Shown: positions 11,034-33,865 of the stretch, in pieces
How the letters are laid out: each line of letters begins with the position of its first letter
Position numbering within the stretch: position 1 is the stretch's first letter
Program-made: the position numbers and the translations under genes
The notes under the pieces: generated by a model
Told to the model about the DNA's origin: nothing
Seen by the model: the letters and a program-made list of their open reading frames with translations, nothing else
The model's database searches: none
Source of the DNA: Arcobacter sp.
GTDB taxonomy: Bacteria; Campylobacterota; Campylobacteria; Campylobacterales; Arcobacteraceae
DNA: 64,000 bases
Assembly (NCBI GenBank): GCA_024228275.1
Contig: JAAETO010000285.1
Coordinates: 15,874-79,873 of the forward strand
Direction of reading: 5' to 3'

Positions 11034-11041
11034 GAAAAAAT

Positions 11042-12037: not shown

Positions 12038-12094
12038 AAAATTAAAAATTATTTTGGGTGATATTATCAAAAATATCATAAAAAGGATATCAAA

Positions 12095-13654: not shown

Positions 13655-13726
13655 AAAATCTATATTTAAATTAGACTAAAAGAAGTATCTAGGTACTTCT
13701 TTTAGTGAAAAATTTGGGAGATAAGA

Positions 13727-16141
13727 ATGGGTAAAAATATTAATACTTTAGATAATACACAATTAAGAGATTCAAGTATAGTAATGGACTTAAAAAGAAT
13801 GGGTTCTATGCATCAATCAAGAATTAGTTTTACAAGAACTCTTGTAAGAAAAATGGCAAATGAAAATTGGACTGTTACAAAAACTAAATGGGATCTGTGT
13901 AAAGATGGATATGGTACTGCAATTTATGAACTTAGAACACCAAATAATATTTATAATCTAGTAATTTTTTCTAATAATATTAAAGATGAAGAGAGAAATG
14001 ATAGAGTTATTGCTGAAAAATGGGATATTACATTTACACTAATTGATGGTGAAGTTAGCGAAACTCTCTTAGAAATGTTAAAAAGTAATGTACCTTTGCA
14101 AGAAGCTGGAAGAAATACAAATCGAGCCTTAGTGCTAGCACGTGCTAATAAAAGTGTTAGAGTTTTTTCTCATATTATTGATTCATTATCAAGTGGGAAA
14201 CAACCAAATATTAAAGAAGTTTCAAAAGTTGGCTATATATTAAGAACAACTGCCGTTTACGGAAGTGGTAAATTTGGTATAAATGACTATGCTGCATTAA
14301 AAGAAAATCCTGATTTCTCTCAATCATTTTCTGCTGAAATGTGTGCTGTATATATTTTAAGACAATTCTCTTTAGATTGGGCAAATTATATTGCTAAAAG
14401 TCAAGGTGGAAATAATGCAGTATCTTTAGATAAAGATATACAAAGATTCCTTGGAATTGGTAATGCTACTGGTTTAGGAATGGCTCCATATTTAATTAGA
14501 CATCCTAAAGTTGTTGATAATTGGTTATACCAAAGAGAATTAGCTTTAAGTAAAGTATCGTTAGAAGAGATTACAAAAGAAAAATCAAAAGAATTAATAT
14601 CATATCTAAATAGAGCAATCACTCATTTAGAAGATGTTGTAACTATAAATGAAAAGCAAAAAGAATTAAATGCTCAAGCAGCTTTAGAAATTCCTACGCT
14701 TATTGAATCTATAAATGAACTACTTGGTAAAACATATAAAGATTTAATTCATAGTTCTACATCTGTTTCTTTAGAAGCACAAGAAATTCTTATTTCTTCA
14801 ATTATTGAGTTATTCCCAGAACTTGTAGATTTTCATGAAAATCATATGAGAGTTGATGAACAACCATTAGAGTTAACAGGTGTTACAATTGAAGCATTAA
14901 AAAGTAAAATTAAATCTTATTATTCATGGGCTTTAAAATATGATTTTTCAAAAGAGAAAAGTAATTATTGGTTTTGGTATGTATCTGAAGATAAAGGAGA
15001 ACCAAGACTTGGAATTAGAAATATTGATAAAGGATCGGAGTTAGAACTTCCTTTAGATATTGCAAGACAAGTTTCAAAATTAGAAAAGATATTGGCAGAT
15101 ATCTCAAATAATGAACCTATTACTAAGTTTTTATTAGAAAACCCTCAATACTCATCTATTATTAGAAGAGTTTGGACTATGGGTGCATGTAAGATGGGTG
15201 AAATTCAAGCAAATGTTTTAGATAAAGATTTTCTTCCTATGGATTTATTAAGAGCTAAACTTGCTATGTTTGGAGCGACAAAGTTTGATCCTAGATCTGA
15301 TAGATGGGTTCAAGTTACATTTTTTCAAAGTGCTCCATTATTGGATGAAATTCATAATGCAGAGTGGTTATTCCCTCAACTTCCCAAAAGTAAAGATGAT
15401 AGATTGACTGTAGAAAGTGGAAAAATATCTGTATCAAGAACAGAACTTACAACTATGTGTAATAATGCTTTTAATGCCTTAAAAAGGGATTCTGGTGAAT
15501 CAGATCTAATTTCAAAAATGGTAGTTGATTTACAAATGGTGGGACTAGGTGGTGTTAAACAATTTGTAAATGCCTTAAAATATTTAAAAAATATTAATGA
15601 TTTATCATTGAATATCTCATCTGAAGGTTCATATATTACTGCTGATTTAAATAATGACACAATTTTAGGTCATATACAAATTTTAGTTGCATATGCATTA
15701 GAATCTATTCCTAAATATGAAACTGTAACCTTAGAAATTAAAAATTGTCATAATAGATGGTTAGTATTTTCTCAAGCTTTAAGAATTGCAAAAAAAGGTC
15801 TTAATGCAAGATTCTCTTGGAATAACTCATCTGATAGTGATCGAATTTCATATTGTATAAATGCTAATGATGAATTCCCAACAGTTTACAAAAGTAGAAG
15901 TGATAATTCTAATTTAAGAACATTAATAATAGAAATTAGTAAAACAAAAATTAATAGAGAATCTGTTAAATCAGAAATTATTAGTTCAAAAACTTTAGAA
16001 AAATCATTTAATGATGCAGTTGAAAATGGTTTAGTTATTGATTTAAATGATTGGAATGATTTAAAAGAAGTTGCAAAAGCAATTTATGTTGCATCTAGTG
16101 AAACATCTAAAAATGATGCTGGTGGAGCTATTGAAAAATAA
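13727..16141 (+). CDS. large hypothetical protein (804 aa), no family recognised
   Basis: Long uninterrupted ORF in an operon-like position, with codon usage like its neighbours. I saw no TM segment, signal peptide or familiar cofactor motif. Confidence 0.7.
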   Translation: MGKNINTLDNTQLRDSSIVMDLKRMGSMHQSRISFTRTLVRKMANENWTVTKTKWDLCKDGYGTAIYELRTPNNIYNLVIFSNNIKDEERNDRVIAEKWDITFTLIDGEVSETLLEMLKSNVPLQEAGRNTNRALVLARANKSVRVFSHIIDSLSSGKQPNIKEVSKVGYILRTTAVYGSGKFGINDYAALKENPDFSQSFSAEMCAVYILRQFSLDWANYIAKSQGGNNAVSLDKDIQRFLGIGNATGLGMAPYLIRHPKVVDNWLYQRELALSKVSLEEITKEKSKELISYLNRAITHLEDVVTINEKQKELNAQAALEIPTLIESINELLGKTYKDLIHSSTSVSLEAQEILISSIIELFPELVDFHENHMRVDEQPLELTGVTIEALKSKIKSYYSWALKYDFSKEKSNYWFWYVSEDKGEPRLGIRNIDKGSELELPLDIARQVSKLEKILADISNNEPITKFLLENPQYSSIIRRVWTMGACKMGEIQANVLDKDFLPMDLLRAKLAMFGATKFDPRSDRWVQVTFFQSAPLLDEIHNAEWLFPQLPKSKDDRLTVESGKISVSRTELTTMCNNAFNALKRDSGESDLISKMVVDLQMVGLGGVKQFVNALKYLKNINDLSLNISSEGSYITADLNNDTILGHIQILVAYALESIPKYETVTLEIKNCHNRWLVFSQALRIAKKGLNARFSWNNSSDSDRISYCINANDEFPTVYKSRSDNSNLRTLIIEISKTKINRESVKSEIISSKTLEKSFNDAVENGLVIDLNDWNDLKEVAKAIYVASSETSKNDAGGAIEK

Positions 16142-16193
16142 AAAGTATAATAATTACTGAATATTTTTATAGTAATTAGTTTGAGGTAGGAAA

Positions 16194-18431
16194 ATGAAAA
16201 ATAACCATTTAAATATTAAAATAGCTGGCGGTTGGGGTGCGCTTATTTCATCAAATAAATTTTTACTAAAAGAAGGTTTTTTCAAGCCTTCTAAAACCTT
16301 GTTAAAATTAAATCAATCAAAAGGATTTGATTGTCCTGGATGTGCCTGGCCAGACCCTAAAAATAAAGAAAGATCTATAGCGGAGTTTTGCGAAAATGGT
16401 GTAAAAGCAATTGCCTTTGAAACTACAAAAAAAAGAGCTTCGAAGGAGTTTTTTTCAAAAAACACAGTTTCACAGTTAAATGAACTTGATGTTTATGATA
16501 TAACTAATCTTGGACGTTTAACTGAACCATTTTATTACAACAGTAAAATAGATAAATATGAAGCTATTTCTTGGGATAATGCGTTTAGTATAGTTGCAAA
16601 ACATTTAACTAATTTACCTAAACCTGATGATGCAATATTTTATACTTCAGGAAGAACAAGTAATGAAGCAGCATTTTTATATCAATTAATGGGAAGAATG
16701 ATTGGAACAAATAATTTCCCTGATTGTTCAAATATGTGTCACGAATCTTCTGGTGTTGGTATGAATGAATCAATTGGTATTGGAAAAGGTACAGTCTCTT
16801 TAGAAGATTTTGATAAAGCTGAACTTATAATGATTTTTGGACAAAACCCAGGAACTAATCATCCTAGAATGTTAAGTGAATTACAAAAAGCATCTAAACG
16901 AGGTGCTAGAATTGTCTCTATTAATCCATTAAAAGAAGCAGGTCTAGTATCTTTTATTCATCCTCAGGATATTCCTTCAATGTTAAGTAATAAAGCAACT
17001 TCAATTAGTAGCCATTATTATCAAGTAAAAGTTGGTAGTGACATGGCTTTAATTCAAGCAATAATTAAATATATTCTTGAAACTCATCCTTATGCAATTG
17101 ATAATGATTTTATTAGTGCTAATACTAATGGTTTTGAAGAGTATGAGGAAACAATTTTAAATAAATCATGGAGTGTCCTACTTGACGAAAGTTCTTTAAA
17201 AATGGATGATATTATCCAGATAAGTGAACTTTACATCTCTTCTAGTAAAACTATATGTTGCTGGGCAATGGGTTTAACTCAACATCAACATGGCGTAGCA
17301 ACAATTCAAGAAGTAATTAACTTATTGTTAATTAAAGGTAATATTGGAAAAAAAGGTGCTGGAGCATGTCCTGTTAGAGGGCATAGTAATGTTCAAGGAG
17401 ATAGAACTGTTGGAATCTCTGAGGCTCCAAAAGAAGAATTTCTAAAAAAAATAGATAGTGTGTTTGATTTTACAAGTCCTAGAAAACATGGTTATGATGT
17501 AGTTCATGCAATCAAAGCTATGCATAAAGAGAAAAACAAGGTATTTATAGGTCTTGGTGGAAATTTTGCGGATGCTGCACCTGATACTAAATTAACTTAT
17601 GAGGCTTTAAAATCATGTGCCTTAACAGTTCATATCTCTACTCATTTAAATAAAAGTCATTTAATTTGTGGAAAAGAAGCATTAATATTACCCTGTTTAG
17701 GACGAACTGAACTTGATATTCAATTAGGTGGGGTACAAAGTGTAACGGTAGAGGATTCAATGAGTATGGTTCATTCCTCTAAAGGGAGTAATATTCCTAT
17801 TTCACGAGATATTAAATCTGAACCAGCAATAATTGCTGGAATTGCTAATGCGACTTTAGGAAATGAAAAGGTAGATTTTTTAGATTTAATAAGTGATTAT
17901 AATAAAATTAGAGATAAGATAGAAGAAGTATTACCTTCTTTTTATTCTTACAATAAATCTGTACTTCAAGATGATGGATTTGAATTATATAATAGTGCTA
18001 AAAATAAAGTTTGGGATACTCCAACAAAAAAAGCTAATTTTTTAATTAATAATACACCGAATTTAAATTTAGAAGAGAATCATTTAGCTTTAATGACAAT
18101 TAGATCACATGACCAATTTAATACAACAGTGTATGATACAAATGATAGATATAGAGGAATTGTAAATAAAAGAAGAGTAATTTTTTTAAATAAAAATGAC
18201 ATGGAAAAACTTTCTTTAAAAGATTCAGATATTGTAAATATAAGATCATATTCTAAAGATAAAATTAAAAGAGAAGTATTTAATTTTGAAGTTATATCTT
18301 ATGATATTAGGGACGGGTGTGCAGCTTCATATTTCCCCGAAACTACACCTTTAGTATCTATAGAACATTATGATAAAAAAAGTTTTACACCCTCTTATAA
18401 ATTTATTGATATAACTATAGAAAAAGTTTAA
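16194..18431 (+). CDS. FdhF/YdeP-family molybdopterin (bis-MGD) oxidoreductase, cytoplasmic, substrate unknown
   Basis: 745 aa. NQSKGFDCPGCAWPDPK is the characteristic YdeP-type N-terminal Cys motif, and MGLTQHQHG and RGHSNVQGDR are typical blocks. There is no twin-arginine signal. Confidence 0.8.
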   Translation: MKNNHLNIKIAGGWGALISSNKFLLKEGFFKPSKTLLKLNQSKGFDCPGCAWPDPKNKERSIAEFCENGVKAIAFETTKKRASKEFFSKNTVSQLNELDVYDITNLGRLTEPFYYNSKIDKYEAISWDNAFSIVAKHLTNLPKPDDAIFYTSGRTSNEAAFLYQLMGRMIGTNNFPDCSNMCHESSGVGMNESIGIGKGTVSLEDFDKAELIMIFGQNPGTNHPRMLSELQKASKRGARIVSINPLKEAGLVSFIHPQDIPSMLSNKATSISSHYYQVKVGSDMALIQAIIKYILETHPYAIDNDFISANTNGFEEYEETILNKSWSVLLDESSLKMDDIIQISELYISSSKTICCWAMGLTQHQHGVATIQEVINLLLIKGNIGKKGAGACPVRGHSNVQGDRTVGISEAPKEEFLKKIDSVFDFTSPRKHGYDVVHAIKAMHKEKNKVFIGLGGNFADAAPDTKLTYEALKSCALTVHISTHLNKSHLICGKEALILPCLGRTELDIQLGGVQSVTVEDSMSMVHSSKGSNIPISRDIKSEPAIIAGIANATLGNEKVDFLDLISDYNKIRDKIEEVLPSFYSYNKSVLQDDGFELYNSAKNKVWDTPTKKANFLINNTPNLNLEENHLALMTIRSHDQFNTTVYDTNDRYRGIVNKRRVIFLNKNDMEKLSLKDSDIVNIRSYSKDKIKREVFNFEVISYDIRDGCAASYFPETTPLVSIEHYDKKSFTPSYKFIDITIEKV

Positions 18432-19238: not shown

Positions 19239-19880
19239 ATGAAGAATAAATTAAAACGAGATAAGAATAAAACAATGACTAACCAAGTTTACGAAAAACT
19301 TGAAGATTTAATTGTATTTTGTAAAATAGAACCAGGTACAATTTTAACTGAATTAGAAATATCTGATATGATTGGAGCAGGGAGAACACCTGTTCGAGAA
19401 GCTTTAAGACTTTTAGCTAATGAATCTTTAGTTAGTATTTCACGAATTGGAATTCTAATTACTGAAACGAGTGCAACAACACAACTTCGACTTTTAGAAG
19501 TTCGAAGATCAATATTACATTTATGCATAGATAAAGCTATAGTTAGATTGACAGAATTAGATAAAAAAGATTTAAAAGAATTAATAGAATCTGTAGATGA
19601 AGTAGATGATGTAGAATTTTTGTATTGGCTGAAAAAAAGACATAGAATACTTGCAAATTGTTCTAAGAATCCATTTATATATGAAGAACTTAAGAATGTT
19701 CAAGGTTTGTCAAATAGGTTTTGGTACTTTTATGCAAAAAAAGAAGATCATAAAGATGGTCAAAGACTACATAAACAAATTCTAGAAGCAGTAATCAAAG
19801 AAGATAAAGATGAAGCTGTAAAAGCAGTAGATGAACTTATTGATTATTTAGAAGAATTTGTAAGAATCCATTCTATATAA
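19239..19880 (+). CDS. GntR-family transcriptional regulator, FadR/FCD subfamily (regulator 2)
   Basis: 213 aa. It is collinear with regulator 1 over its full length, with roughly half the residues identical by eye (e.g. IEPGTILTE.EI.DMIGAGR.PV.EAL, FIYEEL.NVQGLS.RFWY.Y.KK.DHK). Confidence 0.8.
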   Translation: MKNKLKRDKNKTMTNQVYEKLEDLIVFCKIEPGTILTELEISDMIGAGRTPVREALRLLANESLVSISRIGILITETSATTQLRLLEVRRSILHLCIDKAIVRLTELDKKDLKELIESVDEVDDVEFLYWLKKRHRILANCSKNPFIYEELKNVQGLSNRFWYFYAKKEDHKDGQRLHKQILEAVIKEDKDEAVKAVDELIDYLEEFVRIHSI

Positions 19881-19893
19881 CAAACCATATTAA

Positions 19894-19922
19894 AAGAAAG
19901 CCTATTTCTTAGGCTTTCTTTT
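19894..19922 (+). terminator. rho-independent terminator after GntR regulator 2
   Basis: A 10-bp perfect stem (aagaaagcct / aggctttctt) with a 7-nt loop, running into a T-rich tail. Confidence 0.6.
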
Positions 19923-20014
19923 AATCTTAATTATTAATTTCCCTCAATAAAACCAGCAGTAAAATTAAATCAGTCTAATATTAATTAAAAATCAAGATAT
20001 TTTTTAAGTATATC

Positions 20015-20031
20015 TAGAATATATCTTAAGT
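20015..20031 (+). promoter_or_regulatory. candidate operator upstream of module 2 (17-mer identical to 9113-9129)
   Basis: tagaatatatcttaagt lies 58 nt before the dctP ATG (the copy at 9113 lies 56 nt before its ATG). It sits inside the imperfect palindrome ttaagtatatctagaatatatcttaag (20005-20030). Confidence 0.45.
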
Positions 20032-20088
20032 ATATTTTAAGTTAGTGAAGCGTATACTTTCAATATATAAAATAAAAAAGGATGAAAG

Positions 20089-21141
20089 ATGTTAAGAAAT
20101 AAATTACTTGGTACAGCTTGTGCTTTACTATTAAGTGCAGTAACTTTAAGTGCAGAAACATGGAAATTTGCTAGTGAAGAAGCAAAAAAAGATGTACAAG
20201 ATATCTATGCTCAAGAGTTTGCAAAAGTTGTAAAAAAAGAGTCTAATGGAAAAATCAAAGTTAGAATTTATTATTATGGACAACTTGGTGGTGAAAATGA
20301 TATTGTTGAATTAACTTCAAATGGTTCAATTCAATTTGTATCAGTAGGAACTGGACATTTAGGTTCATATGTTCCAGAAGTTCAATCAATCTCGATTCCA
20401 TATGTATTAACAAATAATGAAGATGCAGCTTATGAAGTATTAACAACAAGTAAAACAATTTATAATGACTTAGCACCAAAATTTGAAAAAGCAAATTTAA
20501 AACTATTATCTATGATTAGTGAAGGTGAAATGGCATGGGGTGCAAACAAACCTATTAGAACTCCAGAAGATTTTGCTGGTCAAAAGATTAGAACATTCAC
20601 TTCAACTATTCCCGTTGAAACTTACAAAGCATTTGGAGCAGTTCCAACTCCTTTATCATGGGGAGAAGTTTACTCTTCATTACAACTAGGAACAGTAGAT
20701 GGTATGGTAAATCCAATGTACTTTATTTATAATGCAAAATGGCATATGGTTCAAAAATATATTATGTTCCCAGGTCAACAGCCATATATTGGGACTATTT
20801 CAACAAATTCAAAATGGTTTGCTAAACAAACACCAGAAAAACAAGCAATTATTAATAAAGCAATCAAAGCAGCAAATAAAGCAGCATTTATTTATCAAAA
20901 GAAAATCAATAAAGAAAATACTGCAAAAATGCTAGAAGAGAATAAAGAGTTAAAACTTATTACTTTAACACCAGAAGAGAGAAATAAATTTAAAGATATC
21001 AGTAAATCTTTACATGGGACTTTTTTAGATGTAGTAGCAAAAGCTTATCCTGATAATAAAAAAGAAGAAGCAAAAAAAGATGCTAAAAAAATATTAAATA
21101 ATTTAATTAAAGAAGTTAAAGAAGCTGAAAGTAGACACTAA
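20089..21141 (+). CDS. TRAP transporter substrate-binding protein (DctP family)
   Basis: 350 aa. It has an N-terminal signal peptide (LLSAVTLSAETW) and a DctP-type pattern (QLGGENDIVELTSNGSIQF, IRTF...AFGA.PTPL.WGEVY..LQ.G.VDG). Confidence 0.85.
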   Translation: MLRNKLLGTACALLLSAVTLSAETWKFASEEAKKDVQDIYAQEFAKVVKKESNGKIKVRIYYYGQLGGENDIVELTSNGSIQFVSVGTGHLGSYVPEVQSISIPYVLTNNEDAAYEVLTTSKTIYNDLAPKFEKANLKLLSMISEGEMAWGANKPIRTPEDFAGQKIRTFTSTIPVETYKAFGAVPTPLSWGEVYSSLQLGTVDGMVNPMYFIYNAKWHMVQKYIMFPGQQPYIGTISTNSKWFAKQTPEKQAIINKAIKAANKAAFIYQKKINKENTAKMLEENKELKLITLTPEERNKFKDISKSLHGTFLDVVAKAYPDNKKEEAKKDAKKILNNLIKEVKEAESRH

Positions 21142-21144
21142 TTA

Positions 21145-21167
21145 AAAAAGCCCTTTGGGCTTTTTTA
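21145..21167 (+). terminator. intra-operon hairpin/attenuator after the TRAP binding-protein gene
   Basis: aaaaagccc-ttt-gggcttttt followed by T's, immediately after the dctP stop. This arrangement commonly gives excess binding-protein mRNA. Confidence 0.6.
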
Positions 21168-21178
21168 AAGGAAAAATA

Positions 21179-21946
21179 ATGAAAATAAAAGTAATAGATA
21201 GTGAACTTAATAACACAATATCTCATAATGGAAAAATAGGTTTAATACTTCTTGCAACAGACCAAATTACGTTATATGAATTTGATGCAATTTTAAAAGA
21301 TACCGGAGTTTTATGTTTCCCTTCTAGGGTTATGATGGATTCTGTAGAACTTACACCTGAAGTTTTAATGGCGATAAAAAATGAATTAGCTTGCGCCACA
21401 AACACAATCTTACCAGGACTAACTTTAGATGTTGTTGCCTTATCTTGTACATCAGCTTCAATGACAATAGGTGAAGATGAAGTTGCAAGAATTATTAAAC
21501 AAAGTAATTCAAAAAGAGAGATAAAAGAAGTAACAAACCCATATACAGCAATTAAAAATGCATGTGAGTTTTTAAATATAAATGAGTTAGGAGTAATTAC
21601 TCCGTATAGTATAGAAGTAACACAAGGAATTATAGATGGTATGCAAGCAAATATCAAAACTATTAGTGCGGCGACATTTAATAATACAAATGACAATTTA
21701 GTTCCAAGTATTACCCCAGAGTCTATAAAAAATGCAGTAATTGAAATGGCAAAAGATGAAAAATTAAAAACCATTTTTGTCTCTTGTACAAATTTAAATA
21801 TAAGTAGATATATAGATGAATTAGAAAAAGTTACTGGTAAATTAATTTTATCAAGTAATCAAGTTATGGCTTGGGATATTTTAAGGTTAGCAAACTATAA
21901 AAAGCCAATTTTTGGTTTTGGTTCGCTTTTAAAGAAAGAGAGATAA
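21179..21946 (+). CDS. Asp/Glu/hydantoin racemase superfamily protein (maleate isomerase / EutA-like, two catalytic Cys)
   Basis: The start is moved to the ATG at 21179 (MKIKVID), which has an AGGA-type RBS and lies after the hairpin. The motifs VVALSCTSASM and IFVSCTNLN match the paired-cysteine motifs of maleate cis-trans isomerase-type enzymes. Confidence 0.7.
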   Translation: MKIKVIDSELNNTISHNGKIGLILLATDQITLYEFDAILKDTGVLCFPSRVMMDSVELTPEVLMAIKNELACATNTILPGLTLDVVALSCTSASMTIGEDEVARIIKQSNSKREIKEVTNPYTAIKNACEFLNINELGVITPYSIEVTQGIIDGMQANIKTISAATFNNTNDNLVPSITPESIKNAVIEMAKDEKLKTIFVSCTNLNISRYIDELEKVTGKLILSSNQVMAWDILRLANYKKPIFGFGSLLKKER

Positions 21947-21947
21947 T

Positions 21948-22499
21948 ATGAAAAATGTATTAGCAAAAGTTAATTATGTTACAGCAAAAATTGAGAAGAT
22001 AATTTTATCTATGTCTATTTTGTTGATGATGCTTAACACAACGGCAAATGCTTTAGGAAGATATATCTTTGATCAAAGTATATATTTTTCTGAGGAATTA
22101 AATCAGTTTTTGATGGTATCAGTAACTTTTATTGGATTAGCATATGCAGTTAGAAATGGAAGAAATATTCGTATGACTGCAATATATGATAACTTATCTC
22201 ATAAAAAGAAAAAGTTTTTGATGATTATAATTGCAATTACAACTTCTATGTTGATGTTTTTGTTAGCCTATGAAGCTTATAACTATGTGATGCAATTAAA
22301 AGAAATAAATAGATTAAGCCCAGCACTTCAAGTTGAAGTATACTTGGTATATATGATCGTACCTATAGGGTTTCTTATGGCTGGTATTCAATTTTTTATT
22401 AGGTTTATTCAAAATCTATTGCACGATGAAATTTATCTTTCTTTTGATGTTATTGAAGAGAAAGATTGTGATTCAACGATAGGTGATCAAGCATGTTAG
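21948..22499 (+). CDS. TRAP transporter small permease (DctQ family)
   Basis: 183 aa with four predicted TM segments. It sits immediately upstream of, and overlaps, the DctM gene. Confidence 0.8.
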   Translation: MKNVLAKVNYVTAKIEKIILSMSILLMMLNTTANALGRYIFDQSIYFSEELNQFLMVSVTFIGLAYAVRNGRNIRMTAIYDNLSHKKKKFLMIIIAITTSMLMFLLAYEAYNYVMQLKEINRLSPALQVEVYLVYMIVPIGFLMAGIQFFIRFIQNLLHDEIYLSFDVIEEKDCDSTIGDQAC

Positions 22500-23830
22500 A
22501 ATTTTTACAAAACGTAATAGCTGGTGAGCTTGATGTATATGTTATTACTTTTGCATTATTAACAGTAATGGTAATACTTCTATTTTTGAGTTTCCCAATG
22601 GTTGTACCTTTAACAATTGCAACAATGGTAGGGTTTTTACATTTTTCAGATTTGCCTCTGCAAAATATAATTCAACAAATGATTACAGGTATTACACCCA
22701 ATGCATTAATAGCAATACCAATGTTTATTTTTGCTGCAGATATTATGACCCGAGGCCATGCAGCTACAAGATTACTTGATTTGATTGAAGTATTTATTGG
22801 TCACTATAGAGGTGGATTACCAATTACTACTTGTATTTCATGTACTTTATTTGGTTCAGTTTCAGGTTCAACTCAAGCAACAGTTGTATCAGTGGGAACA
22901 ATTATGAGACCAAAATTATTAAAAGCTGGATATAAAGACAGTTTTATTTTAGGACTTATAATCAATGCAAGTGATATTGCTTGGTTAATTCCACCTAGTA
23001 TCGGACTTATTTTATACGGTGTTTTAGCAAATGCAAATATTGCAGAGTTATTTATCGCAGGAATTGGACCAGGACTTATATTAGCAGGTCTATTTTCAGT
23101 GTATTGTTACATTTATTCAATAACGCACCAAGATGAAATTACATTGGCTCCAAAAGCTGATTGGCCAAAAAGATTAAAAGCTGTAAAGAGTTCAATATTA
23201 CCAATGGGTTTCCCTATTTTAATTGTAGGTGGAATTTATTCAGGAGCATTTACTCCAACAGAAGCGGCAGCATTTTCAGTGTTATATGCGATTATTTTAG
23301 AAGTAGTGATATATAAAAAACTAGGACTAAAAGATTTAATTGATTCATCACTTAGTACGGGACTTATTACTGCTGTAGTATTTATTCTTGTTGGAGCTGG
23401 TCAAGCATTCTCTTGGTATATATCTTTTGAAATGATTCCTCAAGAATTATTAGGAGCACTTGATTTAGAAAATGCAAGTCCAGAGTTTATACTTTTTGTA
23501 ATCTCTCTTGCTTTTGTAATAGGGTGTATGTTTGTTGATTCAATTGTTGTATTACTGATTTTAACACCAGTATTTATGCCAATAATTGATTCATCTGGAC
23601 TGGATCCAGTATTAGTTGGAGTTGTAATTACTTTACAAATGGCAGTTGGTTCTGCAACACCACCATTTGGATGTGATATTTTTACTGCAATTGCAGTATT
23701 TAAAAAATCATATATGCAAGTAATAAGTGGGATATTCCCCTTCTTCATGATTTTAATGTTGATGTCGGCAATTTTAATATTCTTCCCTGATTCAGCTTTG
23801 TTTTTAAGGGATTTAGCGTTTGATAAGTAA
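22493..23830 (+). CDS. TRAP transporter large permease (DctM family)
   Basis: 445 aa and polytopic. FGSVSGSTQATV and PPFGCDIF are DctM-type blocks. Confidence 0.85.
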   Translation: MLEFLQNVIAGELDVYVITFALLTVMVILLFLSFPMVVPLTIATMVGFLHFSDLPLQNIIQQMITGITPNALIAIPMFIFAADIMTRGHAATRLLDLIEVFIGHYRGGLPITTCISCTLFGSVSGSTQATVVSVGTIMRPKLLKAGYKDSFILGLIINASDIAWLIPPSIGLILYGVLANANIAELFIAGIGPGLILAGLFSVYCYIYSITHQDEITLAPKADWPKRLKAVKSSILPMGFPILIVGGIYSGAFTPTEAAAFSVLYAIILEVVIYKKLGLKDLIDSSLSTGLITAVVFILVGAGQAFSWYISFEMIPQELLGALDLENASPEFILFVISLAFVIGCMFVDSIVVLLILTPVFMPIIDSSGLDPVLVGVVITLQMAVGSATPPFGCDIFTAIAVFKKSYMQVISGIFPFFMILMLMSAILIFFPDSALFLRDLAFDK

Positions 23831-24203
23831 ATAATAAAAAGTAAAAGAAATAAAATTTAATAAAAGTAAGGACAAAAAAATGATAAACAATTTTAAACAA
23901 TATTTAAAGAATATATAATTTTTTATAATACATCTAACGCAGTAGTAGGTAAATACGAACACCAAGATATTTTAAGTTTAGAGGGATTTCAGAAAGCATC
24001 TAAAGGGATTTAGCGTTTGATAAGTAAATAATAAAAAGTAAAATAAATAAAATTTAATAAAAGTAAGGACAAATAAATGATAAACAATTTTAAACAATAT
24101 TTAGAAAATACAGAATTTTTTGATAATACATCTAACACAGTAGTAGGTAAATACGAACACCAAGATATTTTAAGTTTAGAGGGATTTCAGAAAGCATCTA
24201 AAG
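23806..24203 (+). repeat. diverged tandem duplication (~197-198 bp unit) of the dctM 3' end, the intergenic region and the dpaL 5' end
   Basis: 23806-24004 and 24003-24203 align end to end, with about 10 substitutions/indels by eye. Copy 1 carries a decayed dpaL start (ATG 23880, MINNFKQYLKNI*). Copy 2 carries the functional start (ATG 24077). Confidence 0.9.
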
Positions 24204-25288
24204 AGATTACATCTTGGGAAGAGTATAAAGTTACTCCACTTGTAAGCTTAGATGAATTAGCTAAGCAAACAGGTGTTTCAAAACTATATTACAAAAATGA
24301 ACACTTTAGATTCTCACTTAAAAGTTTCAAAGCTTTAGGTGGAGCGTATGCTGTTGCAAATTTATTAATTAATAAATTAAAAGATGAAGGAATTGAAGCA
24401 AATTCATCTGATTTATTAGATGGTAAATATAAAGATATTACAAGTAAAATTACAGTTTCTTGTGCAACTGATGGAAATCATGGAAAATCTGTAGCTTGGG
24501 GAGCATCAAACTTTGGATGTAATTGTGAGATATTTATACATAGTCATGTAAGTATAAGTAGGGAAAAAGAAATAGAAAAGTATGGTGCTATTATGCATAG
24601 AATTAAAGGTAATTATGATGATTCTGTACATGAAGCAGCAAGAGTAGCTAAAGAAAAAGGCTTTTTTACAGTTTCTGATACATCTTATGAAGGTTACACA
24701 GAAGTTCCAAAAGATGTAATGCAAGGTTATACTGTAATGGTAGATGAAGCATTGAATCAGATGGATGAAAAACCAACTCATGTATTTTTACAAGGTGGAG
24801 TTGGAGGAATGGCTGCTGCAGTTGCATCTTTTATTCTTGAAACATATGAAGAGGAATCACCAATATTTGTAATGATTGAACCTACTAATGCAGATTGTTT
24901 ACTTCAAAGTGCAAAGAATGGAGAAGCAACTGTAGTTCATGGAGATTTAGATACAGTAATGGCTGGTCTTTCTTGTGGAGAGGTTTCTCTTCTTGCCTGG
25001 CAAATATTAGAAAATAAAACAAAAGCATTTTTTTCAATTCCTGATGAACCAATTGCAAAAGTCATGAAATATTTAGCAAACCTTCCTGAACCAATAGTTG
25101 CTGGTGAATCTGCCGTTGCTGGACTTGCTGGATATATGATTACTCAATTTAGTGAAGAGTATAGAAAAATATTAGAAATTGATGAAAACTCTAAGATTCT
25201 TTTTTTAGGGACAGAGGGAGATACGGATGCTCTTGTATATGAAGAGATGGTTGGTAAAAGTTCTTCAGAGGTTCTAAAAAAGGTTTAA
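24077..25288 (+). CDS. dpaL: diaminopropionate ammonia-lyase (PLP-dependent; YgeX/DpaL family)
   Basis: 403 aa. NEHFRFSLKSFKALGGAYAV contains the PLP-lysine motif of DpaL. ATDGNHG and the Gly-rich GGVGGMAAAV are also typical. Confidence 0.8.
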   Translation: MINNFKQYLENTEFFDNTSNTVVGKYEHQDILSLEGFQKASKEITSWEEYKVTPLVSLDELAKQTGVSKLYYKNEHFRFSLKSFKALGGAYAVANLLINKLKDEGIEANSSDLLDGKYKDITSKITVSCATDGNHGKSVAWGASNFGCNCEIFIHSHVSISREKEIEKYGAIMHRIKGNYDDSVHEAARVAKEKGFFTVSDTSYEGYTEVPKDVMQGYTVMVDEALNQMDEKPTHVFLQGGVGGMAAAVASFILETYEEESPIFVMIEPTNADCLLQSAKNGEATVVHGDLDTVMAGLSCGEVSLLAWQILENKTKAFFSIPDEPIAKVMKYLANLPEPIVAGESAVAGLAGYMITQFSEEYRKILEIDENSKILFLGTEGDTDALVYEEMVGKSSSEVLKKV

Positions 25289-25290
25289 TT

Positions 25291-26520
25291 ATGGAAAAAA
25301 TATTTGAAGGCATTCCTTTTGAGGAAATTAAAGAAAGAGCAGAATATTATAAAGATGATATTTATAAATTCACTCGAGACTTAGTTAGATGTCCAGGTGG
25401 TTCAGGAGATGAATCAAAAGCTGCAAAATGTACTATTGATGAGATGAAAAAACTTGGGTTCGATAAAATAGATATTGATCCAATGGGAAATATTTTAGCA
25501 TATATAGGAAATGGAAAACATCTAGTTGCAATGGATGGACATTTAGATGTAGTAGGAGCTGGGAGTCTCGATAATTGGAATTATGACCCTTATGAAGGCT
25601 ATGAAGATGAAGAAAAAATTATAGGTCGAGGAACAACAGATATGAAAGGTGCTATTGCATCTATTGTATATGCTGCAAAAATAATTATTGATTTGGATAT
25701 AAAGGATGATTTTACTTTGTTAGTATCTGCTTCAGTTGCTGAAGAAGATTGTGATGGATTGTCGTGGAAGTATATGATTGAAGAACAAAATATTAGACCA
25801 GAATTTGTCCTTTTAGCTGAACCAAGTGATGGAAAAATATGTAGAGCTCAAAAAGGTAGAATGGAAATTTCAGTTAGTACATATGGGACATCAGCACATG
25901 GTTCTATACCTCATACAGGAGATAATGCTATTTATAAGATGTCAGGGATATTACAAGAACTTAGAGCTTTAAATGAGAATTTATTAGTAGATGATCTACT
26001 TGGTAAAGGATGCTTAACTGTTTCTGAAATTAGCTCAACGTCACCATCTAGATGTGCAGTATCAGATTCTTGTACTATTTCTATTGATAGACGTTTAACT
26101 TGGGGTGAAAAACCTGATGATGCGTTACAAGAGATTAGAAATTTACCTGCTATAAAACTAGCAGATGCCCAAGTTTCTATTTATAATTATGAAGAGCCAT
26201 CTTATACTGGTTTAGAATATGGACAAGAGTGTTCGTTTAAACCTTGGAAAATGGAAGAAACACATGACGTTACACAAAGTGTTGCAAATGCATATCGAGA
26301 GCTATTTAAAAAAGATGCAGTTATTGATATTTGGCCATTTTCTACAAATGGAGTATCTATTATGGGTGAACACAATATTCCTGTAATTGGATATGGACCA
26401 GGAGAATTGAAATTTGCCCATGCCCCAAATGAAGAAGTAAAGAAAGTAGATTTAATTTTATGTGCTGCTTTATATGCGGCAATTCCTTCTGTATATGTAA
26501 GAATGTTAGAGGATAAATAA
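25291..26520 (+). CDS. ygeY: YgeY-family M20 metallohydrolase (deacylase/peptidase)
   Basis: 409 aa. As I recall E. coli YgeY, there is long-range block identity: IDPMGN, LVAMDGH.D.VG, NW.YDPYEG, GRGT.DMKG, EEDCDGL.W, IRPEFV, GRMEI, GDNAI.KM, LTVSEI..TSPSRCAV.DSC..SIDRRLTWGE, FSTNGVSIMG, HAPNE. Confidence 0.8.
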   Translation: MEKIFEGIPFEEIKERAEYYKDDIYKFTRDLVRCPGGSGDESKAAKCTIDEMKKLGFDKIDIDPMGNILAYIGNGKHLVAMDGHLDVVGAGSLDNWNYDPYEGYEDEEKIIGRGTTDMKGAIASIVYAAKIIIDLDIKDDFTLLVSASVAEEDCDGLSWKYMIEEQNIRPEFVLLAEPSDGKICRAQKGRMEISVSTYGTSAHGSIPHTGDNAIYKMSGILQELRALNENLLVDDLLGKGCLTVSEISSTSPSRCAVSDSCTISIDRRLTWGEKPDDALQEIRNLPAIKLADAQVSIYNYEEPSYTGLEYGQECSFKPWKMEETHDVTQSVANAYRELFKKDAVIDIWPFSTNGVSIMGEHNIPVIGYGPGELKFAHAPNEEVKKVDLILCAALYAAIPSVYVRMLEDK

Positions 26521-26521
26521 T

Positions 26522-27688
26522 ATGTTAGTAGCACCCAAGAGAGGATTTATTCAAAAAGAATATGAAAATAGATTATCAAAAATTCAAAAACTTATGTTTA
26601 AAGAAAAAATGGATGCTATTTTATTAACAACTCAAGTTGACATAGAATACTATACAGGGTTTAAGACACAATTTTTTGTAAGTCCAACAAGACCCTGGTT
26701 CGTATTAATTCCCTTAGATGGTAAACCAAAAGCAATTATTCCTGTAATTGGAAAAAGTGGTATGAAAGAAACTTGGATTGATGATATTCAAACTTGGGTA
26801 TCTCCAAATCCAGATGATGAAGGCGTAAGCTTATTAATAAGTTCAATTAATAATTTAAGGAAGAGATTTAATTCACTTGGCATTCCTCAAGGTCATGAAA
26901 GTAATCTAAGAATGCCCATATCTGATTACAATAAATTAATCTCAAGTTTAAATGATGTACAGATAAAAGATGCTACGAAAATTTTAAGATATGTTAGGTA
27001 TATAAAATCACCAGCAGAGATTGAAAAAATATCATATATTTGTCAAATAGCATCTCAGGGTTTTGAAGATTTGCCAAAACTTTTAAAAGTAGGTGAAAGT
27101 GAAAGTGAAAATTGCCAGAGATTTAAAAAACATTTATTAAATTTAGGGGTAGATGATTTCCCTTATTTGATTTCAGGTTCTGGTCAAGGTGGATATGGAT
27201 CAATTATAATGGGTCCAACTGAAAGGATTTTAGATGATGGAGATATTTTTATCATTGATACAGGTTGTGTGTATGATAGTTACTTCTGTGATTTTGACAG
27301 AAATTACGCATTCTCTTACGCAAGTGAGGAATCAAAAAGAGCTTATGAAGTAGTTTATAAGGCAACTGATGCAGGATTTGAAGCATCAAAAGTAGGTAAT
27401 ACTACTAGTGATGTATTTAATGCTATGAATAAAGTACTACAAAATGGTGGTGCTTTAGGAAATAGTGTAGGAAGACTAGGTCATGGTTTAGGAATGCAAT
27501 TAACTGAATGGCCTTCAAATACTATAAATGATAATACTATTTTAGAAGAAGGAGTAATTATAACATTAGAGCCTGGAATGGAATATCTTCCTAATAAAGA
27601 GATGGTTCATGAAGAGAATATTTTAATTACTAATAGTGGTCCAGTATGGTTATCAAAACGTGCCCCAAAAGAACTTCCAATTATTTAA
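26522..27688 (+). CDS. M24-family hydrolase (Xaa-Pro peptidase / creatinase / ectoine-hydrolase-like)
   Basis: 388 aa. It has an N-terminal creatinase-like domain and a C-terminal pita-bread motif set: IIDTGCVYDSYFCDFDRNY, GHGLGMQL, ITLEPGMEY, HEENILIT. Confidence 0.75.
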   Translation: MLVAPKRGFIQKEYENRLSKIQKLMFKEKMDAILLTTQVDIEYYTGFKTQFFVSPTRPWFVLIPLDGKPKAIIPVIGKSGMKETWIDDIQTWVSPNPDDEGVSLLISSINNLRKRFNSLGIPQGHESNLRMPISDYNKLISSLNDVQIKDATKILRYVRYIKSPAEIEKISYICQIASQGFEDLPKLLKVGESESENCQRFKKHLLNLGVDDFPYLISGSGQGGYGSIIMGPTERILDDGDIFIIDTGCVYDSYFCDFDRNYAFSYASEESKRAYEVVYKATDAGFEASKVGNTTSDVFNAMNKVLQNGGALGNSVGRLGHGLGMQLTEWPSNTINDNTILEEGVIITLEPGMEYLPNKEMVHEENILITNSGPVWLSKRAPKELPII

Positions 27689-28061: not shown

Positions 28062-30527
28062 TTATATCTCCTTTGCTTCAAAGTTTGTTAAGTTTTTTGT
28101 ATCAATTACAATTGGGTTGAACTCTTTTGTAAATCCAGATTCATTTGCCTCTTGCCACGGATCAACTTGTGCATATTTTTGCGATTCTTCAAATCTTAAA
28201 GCACAAGCTTCTCTATTTTTTTCATCATTTAAAATTGCATCTTTTACATAATCTAAACCAACTCTTTCTACCCAATGAGCAGTTCTTTCTAAGTAATATG
28301 CATCTTCTCTATAAAATTGTGTTAGAGCTTTTACATATTCAAAAAGTTCTTCATCTGTTTGTACTTTTGTAAAAAAGTCAGTTACTCTAACTTTTATTCC
28401 ACCATTACCAGCTATATGAATTTCCCAACCTGAATCAACGCCAATAACGCCAATATCTTTAATAGTAGCTTCTGCACAATTTCTAGGACATCCAGATACA
28501 GCTAGTTTAAATTTATGAGGAGTCCATGAACCCCAAGTTAGTCTTTCTAAATCTACACCCATTTGCATAGAGTCTTGTGTTCCAAATCTACACCATTGAT
28601 TACCAACACAAGTTTTTACTGTTCTTAGCCCTTTTGCATATGCTTGTCCTGAAACAAAACCACAATCATTTAAATCTTGCCACATAGGACCTAATTGCTC
28701 TTTTTTTACACCTAATAAATCTAATCTTTGACCACCAGTAAATTTGACAGTTGGTACATCATATTTAACAGCTATATTTGCGATATCCTTAAGTTCTTTA
28801 GGGCTTGTTAGTCCTCCCCAAATTCTAGGAACTACAGAATATGTACCATCTTTTTGTATATTTGCAGATAATCTATCATTTACTAATGCACTTCTTTTAT
28901 CATTTTTGTATTTATTGTCATTATATTTTACAAGTAAGTAATAGTTTACAGCAGGTCTACATTTTGCACACCCATCTTTAGTTTTCCAGTCAAGTTTTTT
29001 AAATACCTCATATACATTATTAAATTCATATTCATTTATATGTTTTTTAATTTCTTTATGTCCAACATCACAACAGTCACAAATACCTTCTACTGTATCT
29101 TGGTATTCATCCCCTAAAGTGTTCACTAAAATTTGTTCAACTAATCCTAGACAAGAACCACATGAAGCACCAGCTTTTGTACATGATTTTACTTCTGTTA
29201 AAGTTTTTAAGTCATTTTCTTTAATTGCATTTACGACATCGCCTTTGCATACGCCATTACATCCACAAACTTCTTCATCGTCACTCATAGAATTAACATC
29301 GTCTCCACCATGTCCTGAATCACCTAAAAGAGCAGCTTTTCCAAATAAAATCTTAGTTCTTAAATCACTTATATCAGTATGTTCTTTTAATAATTTTAAA
29401 TACCATGAAGCATCAGCTGTATCTCCATATAAAACTATACCAATAATTTTGTTATCATAAATTACAAGTTTTTTATATACTCCAACTTTTTCATCAAGTA
29501 AGATTAATTCTTCAGTTGTTTCATCTCCTAGATAATCTCCTGCTGAAAATAAATCAATTCCAGAAATTTTTAATCTTGTTGATAAGGTTGAACCTTTATA
29601 TCCTTCACTATCTTTATTAGCTAATTTCTTAGCACAAAATTTAGCTTGTTCATAAAGAGGAGCTACTAGACCATAAGTATTACCTTTATGTTCTGCACAC
29701 TCTCCAATAGCAAAAATATCTTCATCACTTGTTTGTAAGTGATCATTGACGACAATACCTTTTTTTATTTCAAGTCCTGCTTCATTTGCAAGAATAGTAT
29801 TTGGAATAATTCCAGTTGCAAAGACTACAATATTTGATATTACTTTTTCACCATCTGTAAAGCTAACTTGTTCAACTTTTTGTGAACCATGAATTTCTTC
29901 AATTGTGGTATTTAATTTAAATTCAATACCGTAACTTTCTAAATTTTTTTGTAATAATTTACCAGCAGTTGAGTCTAATTGTTGACTCATAATTGAAGCA
30001 CTTCTATGTACTAAAATAGTTTTAATACCATGCATAGCAATACCATAAGCAGCTTCAAGTCCAAGAAGACCACCACCTACAACTACAGCAGTTTTATCTT
30101 TTGAAATAAGTTCTAAAATAGTATCACTATCTAGTTTTGTTCTAAAACCAATAACGTTTTCTAAGTCACTTCCTTTTGTTTTAGGTACAAAAGAGTTTGA
30201 ACCAGTTGCAATTAAAAGTTTGTCATAGTTTAACTCTAATCCACTTTGGCTTTTAACTGTTTTTTTATTTTTATTTATAGCAATTACTTTATCACCTTTA
30301 TGCAAAGTAATATTATGTTGTTCGTACCATGTTTGATGATTTATTATTGTATCTTCAAAAGTTTTTTCACCTGATAAAAGGTATGACAACATTATTCTGT
30401 TATAGTTGAAGTGGGGTTCATCTCCAAAAATTGTGATATCATATTTATCTGTAGTAATATCAAAAAGATCTTCAATAGTACGAAGACCACTCATTCCATT
30501 TCCTATAACTATTAGTTTCTCTTTCAC
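28062..30527 (-). CDS. nirB: assimilatory nitrite reductase [NAD(P)H] large subunit NirB
   Basis: 821 aa. It has an N-terminal FAD/NAD Rossmann fold (VIGNGMSG), a BFD-like 2Fe-2S region (CGCNGVCKG, CGSCLG) and a siroheme/4Fe-4S motif (GCPRNCAE, TCVGNQWCRFG). Confidence 0.9.
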   Translation of the reverse strand: MKEKLIVIGNGMSGLRTIEDLFDITTDKYDITIFGDEPHFNYNRIMLSYLLSGEKTFEDTIINHQTWYEQHNITLHKGDKVIAINKNKKTVKSQSGLELNYDKLLIATGSNSFVPKTKGSDLENVIGFRTKLDSDTILELISKDKTAVVVGGGLLGLEAAYGIAMHGIKTILVHRSASIMSQQLDSTAGKLLQKNLESYGIEFKLNTTIEEIHGSQKVEQVSFTDGEKVISNIVVFATGIIPNTILANEAGLEIKKGIVVNDHLQTSDEDIFAIGECAEHKGNTYGLVAPLYEQAKFCAKKLANKDSEGYKGSTLSTRLKISGIDLFSAGDYLGDETTEELILLDEKVGVYKKLVIYDNKIIGIVLYGDTADASWYLKLLKEHTDISDLRTKILFGKAALLGDSGHGGDDVNSMSDDEEVCGCNGVCKGDVVNAIKENDLKTLTEVKSCTKAGASCGSCLGLVEQILVNTLGDEYQDTVEGICDCCDVGHKEIKKHINEYEFNNVYEVFKKLDWKTKDGCAKCRPAVNYYLLVKYNDNKYKNDKRSALVNDRLSANIQKDGTYSVVPRIWGGLTSPKELKDIANIAVKYDVPTVKFTGGQRLDLLGVKKEQLGPMWQDLNDCGFVSGQAYAKGLRTVKTCVGNQWCRFGTQDSMQMGVDLERLTWGSWTPHKFKLAVSGCPRNCAEATIKDIGVIGVDSGWEIHIAGNGGIKVRVTDFFTKVQTDEELFEYVKALTQFYREDAYYLERTAHWVERVGLDYVKDAILNDEKNREACALRFEESQKYAQVDPWQEANESGFTKEFNPIVIDTKNLTNFEAKEI

Positions 30528-30592
30528 TATATTTCCTTAATATCTTATAGTGTAATTATAACAAAACTGTAAATATTTTAATCTTGTCATCT

Positions 30593-30622
30593 GTATAAAA
30601 AATAATCAGTATAAAAAATAAT
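30593..30622. repeat. 14-nt direct repeat (period 16) in the nirB upstream region
   Basis: gtataaaaaataat occurs at 30593-30606 and again at 30609-30622, 66-95 nt upstream of the nirB start (30527, minus strand). Confidence 0.8.
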
Positions 30623-30755
30623 ATAGAGATATTGAATGAATATTATGGAATTTATAAATAATACTTGTGTTATCTATAATAAAAATTTAATAATTTGAGT
30701 AGGTATAAAAAATACATGTATTGAACCTATATCATAAAGCTTAAAGGATGATAGT

Positions 30756-30977
30756 TTATAGTCTAACTTGCCATTCATCCAAATCTTTAGGTTTTAGAAT
30801 AGAAGTATTATTATCCAAATCTTCTAATCCTGATGCACATTCATAAACTTGTTGGGCTAATTCATCTGGAGTATTTGCCCAGTTAATTGTATCTTCTTCT
30901 AAGTTTAAATTGTATCCACCATATGGAGCTGTTGATATATATAAAATTCCAAAAGGTGTCTTGTAATAGTACTTCAT
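30756..30977 (-). CDS. small acidic hypothetical protein (73 aa)
   Basis: The ORF stands alone between the lipoprotein operon and nirB. No family was recognised, and coding status is unverified. Confidence 0.4.
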   Translation of the reverse strand: MKYYYKTPFGILYISTAPYGGYNLNLEEDTINWANTPDELAQQVYECASGLEDLDNNTSILKPKDLDEWQVRL

Positions 30978-31126
30978 TTTTTAGTTCCTTCTTTGTTATA
31001 TATTCATTTTATCTAAACTTTGTTTAGGGAAAACGATTTGCAGCATAAAATATTTAGTTCGTTTTGTAGTTTCTATTAAGTTAGGGTATATATTGATTTT
31101 ATTATATACCCCAAGTTGCTTTAAAA

Positions 31127-33813: not shown

Positions 33814-33823
33814 TTAATTCCTT

Positions 33824-33865
33824 TTTTATATGAATTTTAACAAATTTTATATGAATTTTAACAAA
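33824..33865. repeat. perfect 21-bp tandem duplication directly upstream of the CsgG-like gene
   Basis: ttttatatgaattttaacaaa occurs at 33824-33844 and 33845-33865. The start codon of the minus-strand gene is at 33813. Confidence 0.9.

Follow-up and report, generated by a model that had tools for sequence, protein, structure and literature searches.

A recurrent gene module pairing an M24 hydrolase with a diaminopropionate ammonia-lyase in marine bacteria, and its possible relation to ectoine catabolism

Ectoine catabolism leads to aspartate, and a diaminobutyrate transaminase and an aspartate-semialdehyde dehydrogenase are needed after the ectoine ring has been opened. Canonical ectoine operons, such as uehABC-eutABCDE, combine a TeaA/UehA-type receptor of a tripartite ATP-independent periplasmic (TRAP) transporter, or an EhuB-type receptor of an ATP-binding cassette (ABC) transporter, with a two-cysteine EutA protein, a fold-type-II pyridoxal phosphate (PLP) enzyme, an M24 hydrolase, a metallo-deacylase and a regulator of the GntR superfamily or of the AsnC type. 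Structures of UehA (3FXB), TeaA (2VPN/2VPO) and EhuB (2Q88/2Q89) in complex with ectoine or hydroxyectoine are available, and BCCT carriers form a further known class of ectoine importers (PMC5924519). A second related system is the end of the reductive uric-acid pathway, encoded by E. coli ygeW-ygeX-ygeY-hyuA-yqeA and by Clostridium clusters, in which a YgeY-family M20 gene lies directly beside the gene for DpaL (YgeX). E. coli YgeY and YgeX perform the last steps of this pathway and convert the N-carbamoyl derivative of 2,3-diaminopropionate (DAP) to pyruvate, CO2 and ammonium (PMC12507026; bioRxiv 10.1101/2025.04.24.650524). Here we describe a gene module that resembles both systems in part. 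It is located at 19239-27688 in a stretch of 64,000 nucleotides from Arcobacter sp. (assembly GCA_024228275.1, contig JAAETO010000285.1, positions 15,874 to 79,873 of the forward strand), which we call the window.

The module consists of eight open reading frames (ORFs), all on the + strand and with coordinates matching those of an earlier reading of this DNA from its letters, hereafter the original prediction. We assigned families by Pfam and NCBIfam scans of the window proteins. Further, we compared the ORFs of 57 genome loci with close M24 relatives, and of loci retrieved by exact-protein look-ups, with the window proteins. All the components of the canonical ectoine operon listed above have counterparts in the module or its relatives, which in some lineages also include a DoeB2-like M20 enzyme. 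Unlike that operon, the module encodes catabolic proteins that score far under the curated ectoine-family cutoffs. Its PLP enzyme is DpaL and not the threonine-dehydratase-type EutB, it is without EutC, Atf (diaminobutyrate transaminase) and Ssd, and its predicted end product is pyruvate instead of aspartate.

We estimate the chance at about one in two that the module is a substrate-inducible catabolic operon for an ectoine-like zwitterion with a DAP backbone. Such a compound would carry a carboxylate and a delocalised cationic N-C-N group, and would be one backbone carbon shorter than ectoine. The simplest candidates would be imidazoline "nor-ectoines", namely 2-methyl-, 2-amino- or 2-H-4,5-dihydroimidazole-4-carboxylate. 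The TeaA/UehA-type TRAP system would import the compound, and the EutA-like two-cysteine enzyme could alter the configuration of either the substrate or the first intermediate. The binuclear-metal M24 enzyme would then open the ring or remove the first N-substituent to give N-acyl- or N-carbamoyl-DAP. From this the YgeY-type M20 enzyme would free DAP, as the E. coli enzyme does from N-carbamoyl-DAP, and DpaL would turn DAP into pyruvate and two ammonium. Repression of the operon in the absence of the substrate or of an intermediate is the probable role of the GntR/FCD protein. If DAP is the intermediate, no enzyme beyond DpaL would be needed to reach pyruvate. Family memberships, catalytic residues, receptor relations and gene associations were computed; which ligand is bound, which reaction M24 performs and what the EutA-like protein does are inferred.

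Receptors, lyase and hydrolases of the module

The periplasmic binding protein DctP (20089-21141; PF03480, 228 bits) carries a signal peptide and is encoded together with the small and large TRAP membrane subunits, DctQ (21948-22499; PF04290, 98 bits) and DctM (22493-23830; PF06808, 347 bits; TIGR00786, 345 bits, cutoff 268). The best PDB matches of window DctP were UehA (3FXB, 204 bits), TeaA (3GYY and 2VPN, 199 and 193 bits) and 4PFI (192 bits). The next TRAP receptor scored 128 bits, and TeaA and UehA are the closest relatives among receptors with known ligands. For DctP of Halodesulfovibrio the best matches were 4PFI, TeaA and UehA (173-155 bits). The ABC binding protein of SUP05 matched EhuB with 260.7 bits, with the next match at 57 bits, and in other Desulfobacterota BCCT or SNF carriers fill the transporter slot. 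Unrelated transporter types in different phyla therefore point to convergence on the same, ectoine-like, class of ligand.

We compared the positions which we take to be the ligand contacts described in the structure papers of TeaA and EhuB, after checking them against the residue identities in the PDB sequences (TeaA numbering: 2VPN). The carboxylate- and cation-binding residues E9, R144 and N184 were invariant, and W167 was also kept in window DctP. The aromatic box was altered at F66 (to H), E183 (to V), F187 (to Y), W188 (to F) and F209 (to Y), and these five changes were common to all 120 closest homologues (120/120). The EhuB-like protein of SUP05 keeps E21, Y60 and R85 (EhuB numbering) and shows the changes F24Y, F80Y and T133A. 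We place window DctP in a distinct receptor subfamily with a fixed pocket, for which we propose the signature H66/Y187/Y209; TeaA and UehA have Phe at these positions. Retention of the charge-binding residues beside an altered aromatic box suggests a ligand that is probably a relative of ectoine and not ectoine itself.

The PLP-dependent lyase (24077-25288) belongs to the DpaL/YgeX family of diaminopropionate ammonia-lyases (PRK08206 clade). It passed the cutoffs of NF006058 (485 bits, cutoff 276) and TIGR01747 (306 bits, cutoff 274), whereas its score with the narrow E. coli-type model TIGR03528 (340 bits) was under the cutoff of 532. Alignment to E. coli YgeX (PDB 4D9G, 238 bits, 39% identity) revealed that K77, D120 and D189 were all conserved. 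We take these to be the PLP-binding lysine and the two acid/base aspartates of the published E. coli structure. The enzyme is predicted to turn DAP into pyruvate and two ammonium.

Three clades of the DpaL family pair with the same M24 orthologue. The first is the E. coli type of Desulfobacterota, 53-55% identical to YgeX, and its Halodesulfovibrio member passes the strict TIGR03528 model (646 bits, cutoff 532). The second is the Arcobacter/SUP05/Vibrio type. The third is a short alphaproteobacterial type with D120A. The family of the CysK-like enzyme that stands in for DpaL in two loci (L057, L061) also acts on beta-substituted alanines. Association of three DpaL clades and a CysK-like substitute with one M24 suggests that selection seems to act on C3 beta-elimination chemistry. 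This recurrent recruitment also argues for a C3 beta-substituted alanine as the last intermediate, most simply DAP, which is the end intermediate named in the original prediction.

The YgeY-family M20 deacylase (25291-26520) passed both of its family cutoffs (TIGR03526, 599 bits, cutoff 321.5; NF009555, 559 bits, cutoff 321). The view that the substrate of YgeY is poorly defined, with which the locus had been read before, is outdated, as two studies of 2025 assign N-carbamoyl-DAP (PMC12507026; bioRxiv 10.1101/2025.04.24.650524). Window YgeY is predicted to strip an N-carbamoyl or N-acyl group and so to free DAP. Arcobacteraceae and Desulfobacterota have an M20 partner of the YgeY type. The M20 enzymes of Vibrio, Marinomonas and Labrenzia are DoeB2-like, with scores of 310-322 bits against the N2-acetyl-diaminobutyrate deacetylase model, and gave no BLASTP match (E < 1e-5) to window YgeY. 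As the M20 partners are non-orthologous between lineages, the deacylation step appears to be what is conserved, and not one particular enzyme.

The YgeY family name rests on a genomic link to selenium-dependent molybdenum hydroxylase or uric-acid genes. Window YgeY is without this link: among the window ORFs scanned (most of those longer than 100 aa) no gene of the XDH, SsnA, HyuA, YgeW or YgfK type was found. The same holds for SsnA, HyuA, YgeW/UacY, YgfK/UacX, XdhD and selenium-cofactor genes when the related loci examined are included. The YgeX/YgeY pair is detached from its E. coli ygeW-yqeA context, as had been noticed earlier. Unlike in the uric-acid clusters, it is joined to an ectoine-type transporter, a EutA-like protein and an M24 enzyme, and window DpaL falls in a different clade. 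Membership in the uric-acid pathway was rejected, since its other genes were not found. The cells might instead scavenge open-chain N-carbamoyl-diaminopropionates from the reductive purine (uric acid) degradation of other microbes. Candidate substrates would be albizziin, 2-ureido-3-aminopropionate or 2,3-diureidopropionate, with M24 removing a second ureido group. The known conversion of N-carbamoyl-DAP by YgeY and YgeX would fit, and so would the family cutoffs passed by both window enzymes. However, no ssnA, hyuA, ygeW/uacY, ygfK/uacX or xdh-like gene accompanies the pair in the ORFs and loci just named, a DoeB2-like M20 replaces YgeY in many lineages, and there is no YgeY near the SUP05 genes. 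Albizziin would not need M24, and the anionic diureidopropionate is not the kind of ligand, cationic or zwitterionic, that suits BCCT carriers and ectoine-type receptors. The hosts are also marine, and not bacteria of the gut or of uricotelic hosts. We consider this scavenging very unlikely.

The M24 metallohydrolase (26522-27688; PF00557 and PF01321) scored below every curated NCBIfam cutoff. It had been described as creatinase- or ectoine-hydrolase-like. It consists of Creatinase_N and M24 (pita-bread) domains, and prolidases are nearer than either enzyme: the solved-structure matches were prolidase with 103 bits, DoeA (6TWK) with 52 bits and creatinase with 45 bits. With the ectoine hydrolase models the scores were 56 bits (TIGR02993, EutD, cutoff 613) and 65 bits (NF038259, DoeA, cutoff 575). 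The metal ligands D246, D257, H321, E350 and E364 were all present and invariant. M24 was the most conserved member of the module, with orthologues 46-85% identical across three phyla and nearly always adjoining DpaL. We regard it for this reason as a separate, tightly conserved subfamily. As the invariant partner of DpaL it is predicted to catalyse the first hydrolytic step, that is, ring opening or the first N-C cleavage. An AlphaFold2 model built from a 13-sequence alignment (mean predicted local distance difference test score 54, predicted template modelling score 0.51) was too poor for a fold search.

In the Creatinase_N plus pita-bread architecture and in its five metal ligands the M24 enzyme resembles the prolidase/Xaa-Pro dipeptidase branch (Pyrococcus furiosus, PDB 1PV9). 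Utilisation of peptides or N-acyl-amino acids could be proposed from this, with M24 as a prolidase-type dipeptidase, YgeY as a dipeptidase or deacylase and DpaL deaminating D/L-serine or a DAP residue. Its best solved relatives are Xaa-Pro dipeptidases, its metal pentad is complete, and M20 enzymes include dipeptidases. Yet the similarity to prolidases reaches only about 100 bits, and the context is one of transport and DAP catabolism instead of peptide turnover. DctP receptors of the TeaA clade, the EhuB-like protein and BCCT carriers do not serve in peptide transport, no proline-catabolic gene occurs in the module, and peptide use would leave the EutA-like enzyme and the invariant DpaL pairing unexplained. 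Therefore we find a peptide substrate highly improbable.

The EutA-like protein (21155-21946) belongs to the Asp/Glu-racemase/AMDase superfamily (PF17645, 39 bits). The motifs ALSCTSAS and FVSCTNLN, from which a racemase-superfamily protein with both catalytic cysteines had been predicted, are both present, and both cysteine motifs (C-T-S and S-C-T) were invariant in 10 orthologues from three phyla. EutA was the best-scoring family although the TIGR02990 score (134 bits) is lower than the cutoff of 318; orthologues scored higher in Vibrio jasicida (223) and Halodesulfovibrio (179). The true start is probably the ATG at 21179 (MKIK..., 255 aa), as in the orthologues, and the protein is probably an epimerase or racemase.

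Taken together, the parallel with ectoine catabolism that the original prediction drew has become closer: DctP is nearest to UehA and TeaA, the M24-DpaL pair of SUP05 stands behind an EhuB-like ABC transporter, and Vibrio, Marinomonas and Labrenzia have a DoeB2-like M20. The module could thus encode a non-canonical route that degrades ectoine or 5-hydroxyectoine itself. In such a route M24 would be a divergent ectoine hydrolase and YgeY a deacetylase, and the DpaL-like enzyme would carry out a gamma-elimination on 2,4-diaminobutyrate or a beta-elimination on 3-hydroxy-2,4-diaminobutyrate. Ectoine is a known and available marine solute, the binding proteins are nearest to UehA, TeaA and EhuB, the cast of proteins is that of uehABC-eutABCDE, and Malaciobacter has ectABC-ask 2 kb downstream. 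On the other hand, the scores are far too low for the ectoine families (EutA 134, cutoff 318; EutD 56, cutoff 613; DoeA_2 65, cutoff 575; EutB 44-55, cutoff 413). The receptor pocket deviates invariantly from TeaA/UehA at four or five contact positions. Further, the catalytic set specific for DAP is retained in the lyase, which in Desulfobacterota is the strict E. coli-type DpaL. The loci examined yielded neither a diaminobutyrate transaminase nor an aspartate-semialdehyde dehydrogenase to process the C4 products, and it is not obvious which enzyme would take over the keto-acid that hydroxy-diaminobutyrate should give. For these reasons we think ectoine itself unlikely, and a DAP-based relative of ectoine remains our preferred substrate.

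Lineage variants of the module

The gene neighbourhood of M24 was mapped in other genomes, as had been suggested for this locus. A DpaL-family gene adjoined M24 in 53 of the 61 M24 loci, which belonged to Campylobacterota, Gamma- and Alphaproteobacteria and Desulfobacterota. Most loci without an adjoining DpaL gene were contig ends. Two stand-alone M24 genes (L010 and L058) were located in unrelated contexts and gave no clue to function. The full gene order of the window recurred in 14 other Arcobacteraceae loci (62-95% protein identity), among them L004-L009, L011-L015 and L026, with the GntR regulator kept beside the cluster (62-81% identity). Therefore the gene grouping is far beyond chance.

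Outside Arcobacteraceae the composition varied. Approximately 35 loci from SUP05, Thioglobus, Pseudothioglobus and other marine Gammaproteobacteria shared only DpaL (59-67%) and M24 (68-72%) with the window. In seven of these an AsnC regulator, an ABC transporter and a BisC-type molybdoenzyme were inserted. Desulfoluna, Halodesulfovibrio and relatives (L050-L056, L060) had a sigma-54 activator, DpaL, M24 and a YgeY-like M20, often with RidA and a EutA-like gene, and with DctQMP or BCCT as the carrier. Two loci of Desulfobacterota (L057, L061) were without a nearby DpaL gene and had the 486-aa CysK-like PLP enzyme in its place, in L057 together with an SNF carrier. Sneathiella (L048) combined ABC permeases, the short DpaL-like enzyme, a BisC-type molybdoenzyme, M24 and a EutA-like gene. 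With window DctP as query we found orthologues of 66-72% identity in many cultured marine bacteria, including Vibrio jasicida, Marinomonas sp. MED121 and Labrenzia. The DctP neighbourhoods of Vibrio, Marinomonas and Labrenzia contained AsnC, EutA-like, M20, DctPQM and M24 genes (M24 46-52% identical to that of the window) and usually a DpaL-family enzyme.

All parts of the predicted module (TRAP system, racemase, YgeX, YgeY and M24) are thus present in the window, but only M24 and DpaL form an invariant core. Their partners YgeY, the EutA-like protein and the TRAP system can be replaced, and the transporter may be TRAP, EhuB-like ABC, BCCT or SNF, depending on the lineage.

Several further genes accompany the pair. 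In SUP05-type genomes (L001 1817-2689 and about 28 other loci) DpaL-M24 is constantly preceded by a gene for an EamA (DMT-superfamily) carrier, which is adjacent in Sneathiella too (L048 11914-12834); this carrier may be the importer where the ABC system is absent. The molybdoenzyme of the SUP05 and Sneathiella clusters is a cytoplasmic S/N-oxide reductase of the BisC/TorA type (TIGR00509, 902-937 bits, just under the cutoff). Its gene lies between the ABC permease and ATPase genes in SUP05 (L001 5638-7920) and between DpaL and M24 in Sneathiella (L048 7622-9967). RidA was present in several module loci, which is what one would expect beside an enamine-releasing lyase. The 486-aa CysK/cystathionine-beta-synthase-like enzyme of sulfate reducers was located at L053 16719-18179, L057 12376-13836 and L061 12790-14250. 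The ectA, ectB, ectC and aspartokinase genes of Malaciobacter, approximately 2 kb downstream of M24 (L004 13391-17945), were seen in that lineage only (L004, L005, L008). In Labrenzia (L065 1-2909) the module is continued on the same strand by genes for a GNAT acetyltransferase, a histone-deacetylase-family amidohydrolase, a DAO-type flavoprotein and RidA.

Gene layout and surroundings in the window

The window has a G+C content of approximately 28%, and its proteins are 83-96% identical to counterparts from Poseidonibacter, Malaciobacter, Halarcobacter and Arcobacter. On the strength of this identity we assign the host to the marine Arcobacteraceae; the genus is probably Poseidonibacter. The module starts with the GntR/FCD regulator gene (19239-19880; Pfam GntR and FCD), whose product is likely a substrate-responsive repressor of the operon. 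A terminator scan found a hairpin with a 16-bp stem at 19889-19925, terminator-like on both strands, which parts the regulator gene from the transport and catabolic genes. These form two tight blocks, dctP-eutA-dctQM and dpaL-ygeY-M24, with genes overlapping or at most 13 bp apart (dctP-eutA 13 bp, eutA-dctQ 1 bp, dctQ/dctM 7-bp overlap, dpaL-ygeY 2 bp, ygeY-M24 1 bp). This spacing fits co-transcription within the blocks. The gap ahead of dpaL is 246 bp, while the equivalent gap in Malaciobacter is only 32 bp. The difference is due to a tandem duplication on the + strand at 23806-24208 (period approximately 197 bp, repeat families D1 and D2, 95-97% identity). It repeats the 3' end of dctM, the intergenic spacer and the first approximately 125 nt of dpaL. 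A stop codon ends the upstream copy of this start, leaving a truncated decoy ahead of the real gene. A shared operator motif was considered and rejected: the repeated TAAGTATAT upstream of dctP was found only there, at a frequency equal to chance.

Upstream of the module, at 8369-18431, lies a second cluster ("module 1") with genes for a GntR regulator, RidA, an aldehyde dehydrogenase, an M19 dipeptidase, a BCCT carrier, a DUF3726 protein and a YdeP/FdhF-type molybdoenzyme. Its GntR protein (8369-9013) is 58% identical to the regulator of the module described here, so both clusters may respond to related compounds. The DUF3726 protein (13727-16141, 804 aa) matches this domain only over a short stretch (residues 569-633); it gave no match in NCBIfam, nor any sequence relative of known structure. 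Upstream of the module in Malaciobacter and some other Arcobacteraceae, YdeP and the end of the DUF3726 gene are present as well, and YdeP occupies this position in only some members of the family. The YdeP/FdhF-type enzyme of the window (16194-18431) was rejected as a counterpart of the SUP05 molybdoenzyme, as the two share 21% identity over a short stretch and the SUP05 enzyme is of the BisC/TorA type.

Downstream and convergent, on the - strand at 28062-37896, are genes for NirB (821 aa), a molybdopterin/Fe4S4 oxidoreductase and a ferredoxin-DmsC fusion, which look like genes of nitrogen-oxide reduction or assimilation. A CsgG/GNA1162-type lipoprotein cluster lies amid them. They are followed at 38126-39748 (- strand) by a gene for a single 540-aa protein, in which a PP2C phosphatase domain is fused to a Ser/Thr protein kinase domain.

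Strength and meaning of the proposed route

Several points weigh against a catabolic route for a DAP-based, ectoine-like compound. The main weakness is that, to our knowledge, none of the natural metabolites known from the sea is a DAP-based ectoine analogue. A review that mentions DHMICA lists it among synthetic analogues, and our literature search found no report of its natural occurrence. The M24 enzyme is nearer to prolidases (103 bits) than to DoeA (52 bits), and ring opening is therefore an analogy and not a family assignment. The SUP05 loci have M24 and DpaL with no M20 or EutA-like gene nearby, so that in SUP05 DAP would be either the direct product of M24 or released by a deacylase whose gene lies elsewhere. 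The scheme also leaves the BisC/TorA-type molybdoenzyme within the SUP05 and Sneathiella clusters unexplained, and the ligand and activities are read from homology and gene context. The original prediction was confirmed in its gene observation and partly supported in its interpretation.

In the literature we found no paper describing this module, none linking DpaL to ectoine, and no report that SUP05 or Arcobacter use ectoine. Unusual clusters in Thermodesulfobacteriota were noted in a survey of ectoine catabolism from 2026. These were found via EutD homology and usually have two eutD copies; they therefore represent a different architecture from the present module.

A wider suggestion, tentative and in our view somewhat doubtful, is that an imidazoline nor-ectoine (a cyclic amidine or guanidine of DAP) is an unrecognised, widespread marine metabolite, served by its own receptor subfamily and a dedicated M24 ring hydrolase. 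Among its consumers would be Arcobacteraceae, Vibrionaceae, Oceanospirillales, Stappiaceae, Desulfobacterota and, as an abundant group, the SUP05 sulfur oxidisers. In those SUP05 and Sneathiella genomes that encode the BisC-type molybdoenzyme, this enzyme may also reduce the compound from an oxidised form.

In summary, these results suggest, if the proposed route is correct, a sister pathway to ectoine catabolism that would end in pyruvate and ammonium instead of aspartate. YgeY and DpaL would gain a second physiological setting, outside purine degradation, and the receptor pockets would offer a testable specificity code for ectoine-type binding proteins. The pathway would imply a nitrogen-rich dissolved compound of seawater that is outside current metabolite lists. 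As the module occurs both in culturable bacteria and in SUP05, which dominates oxygen-deficient waters, it may represent a new supply route of organic nitrogen.

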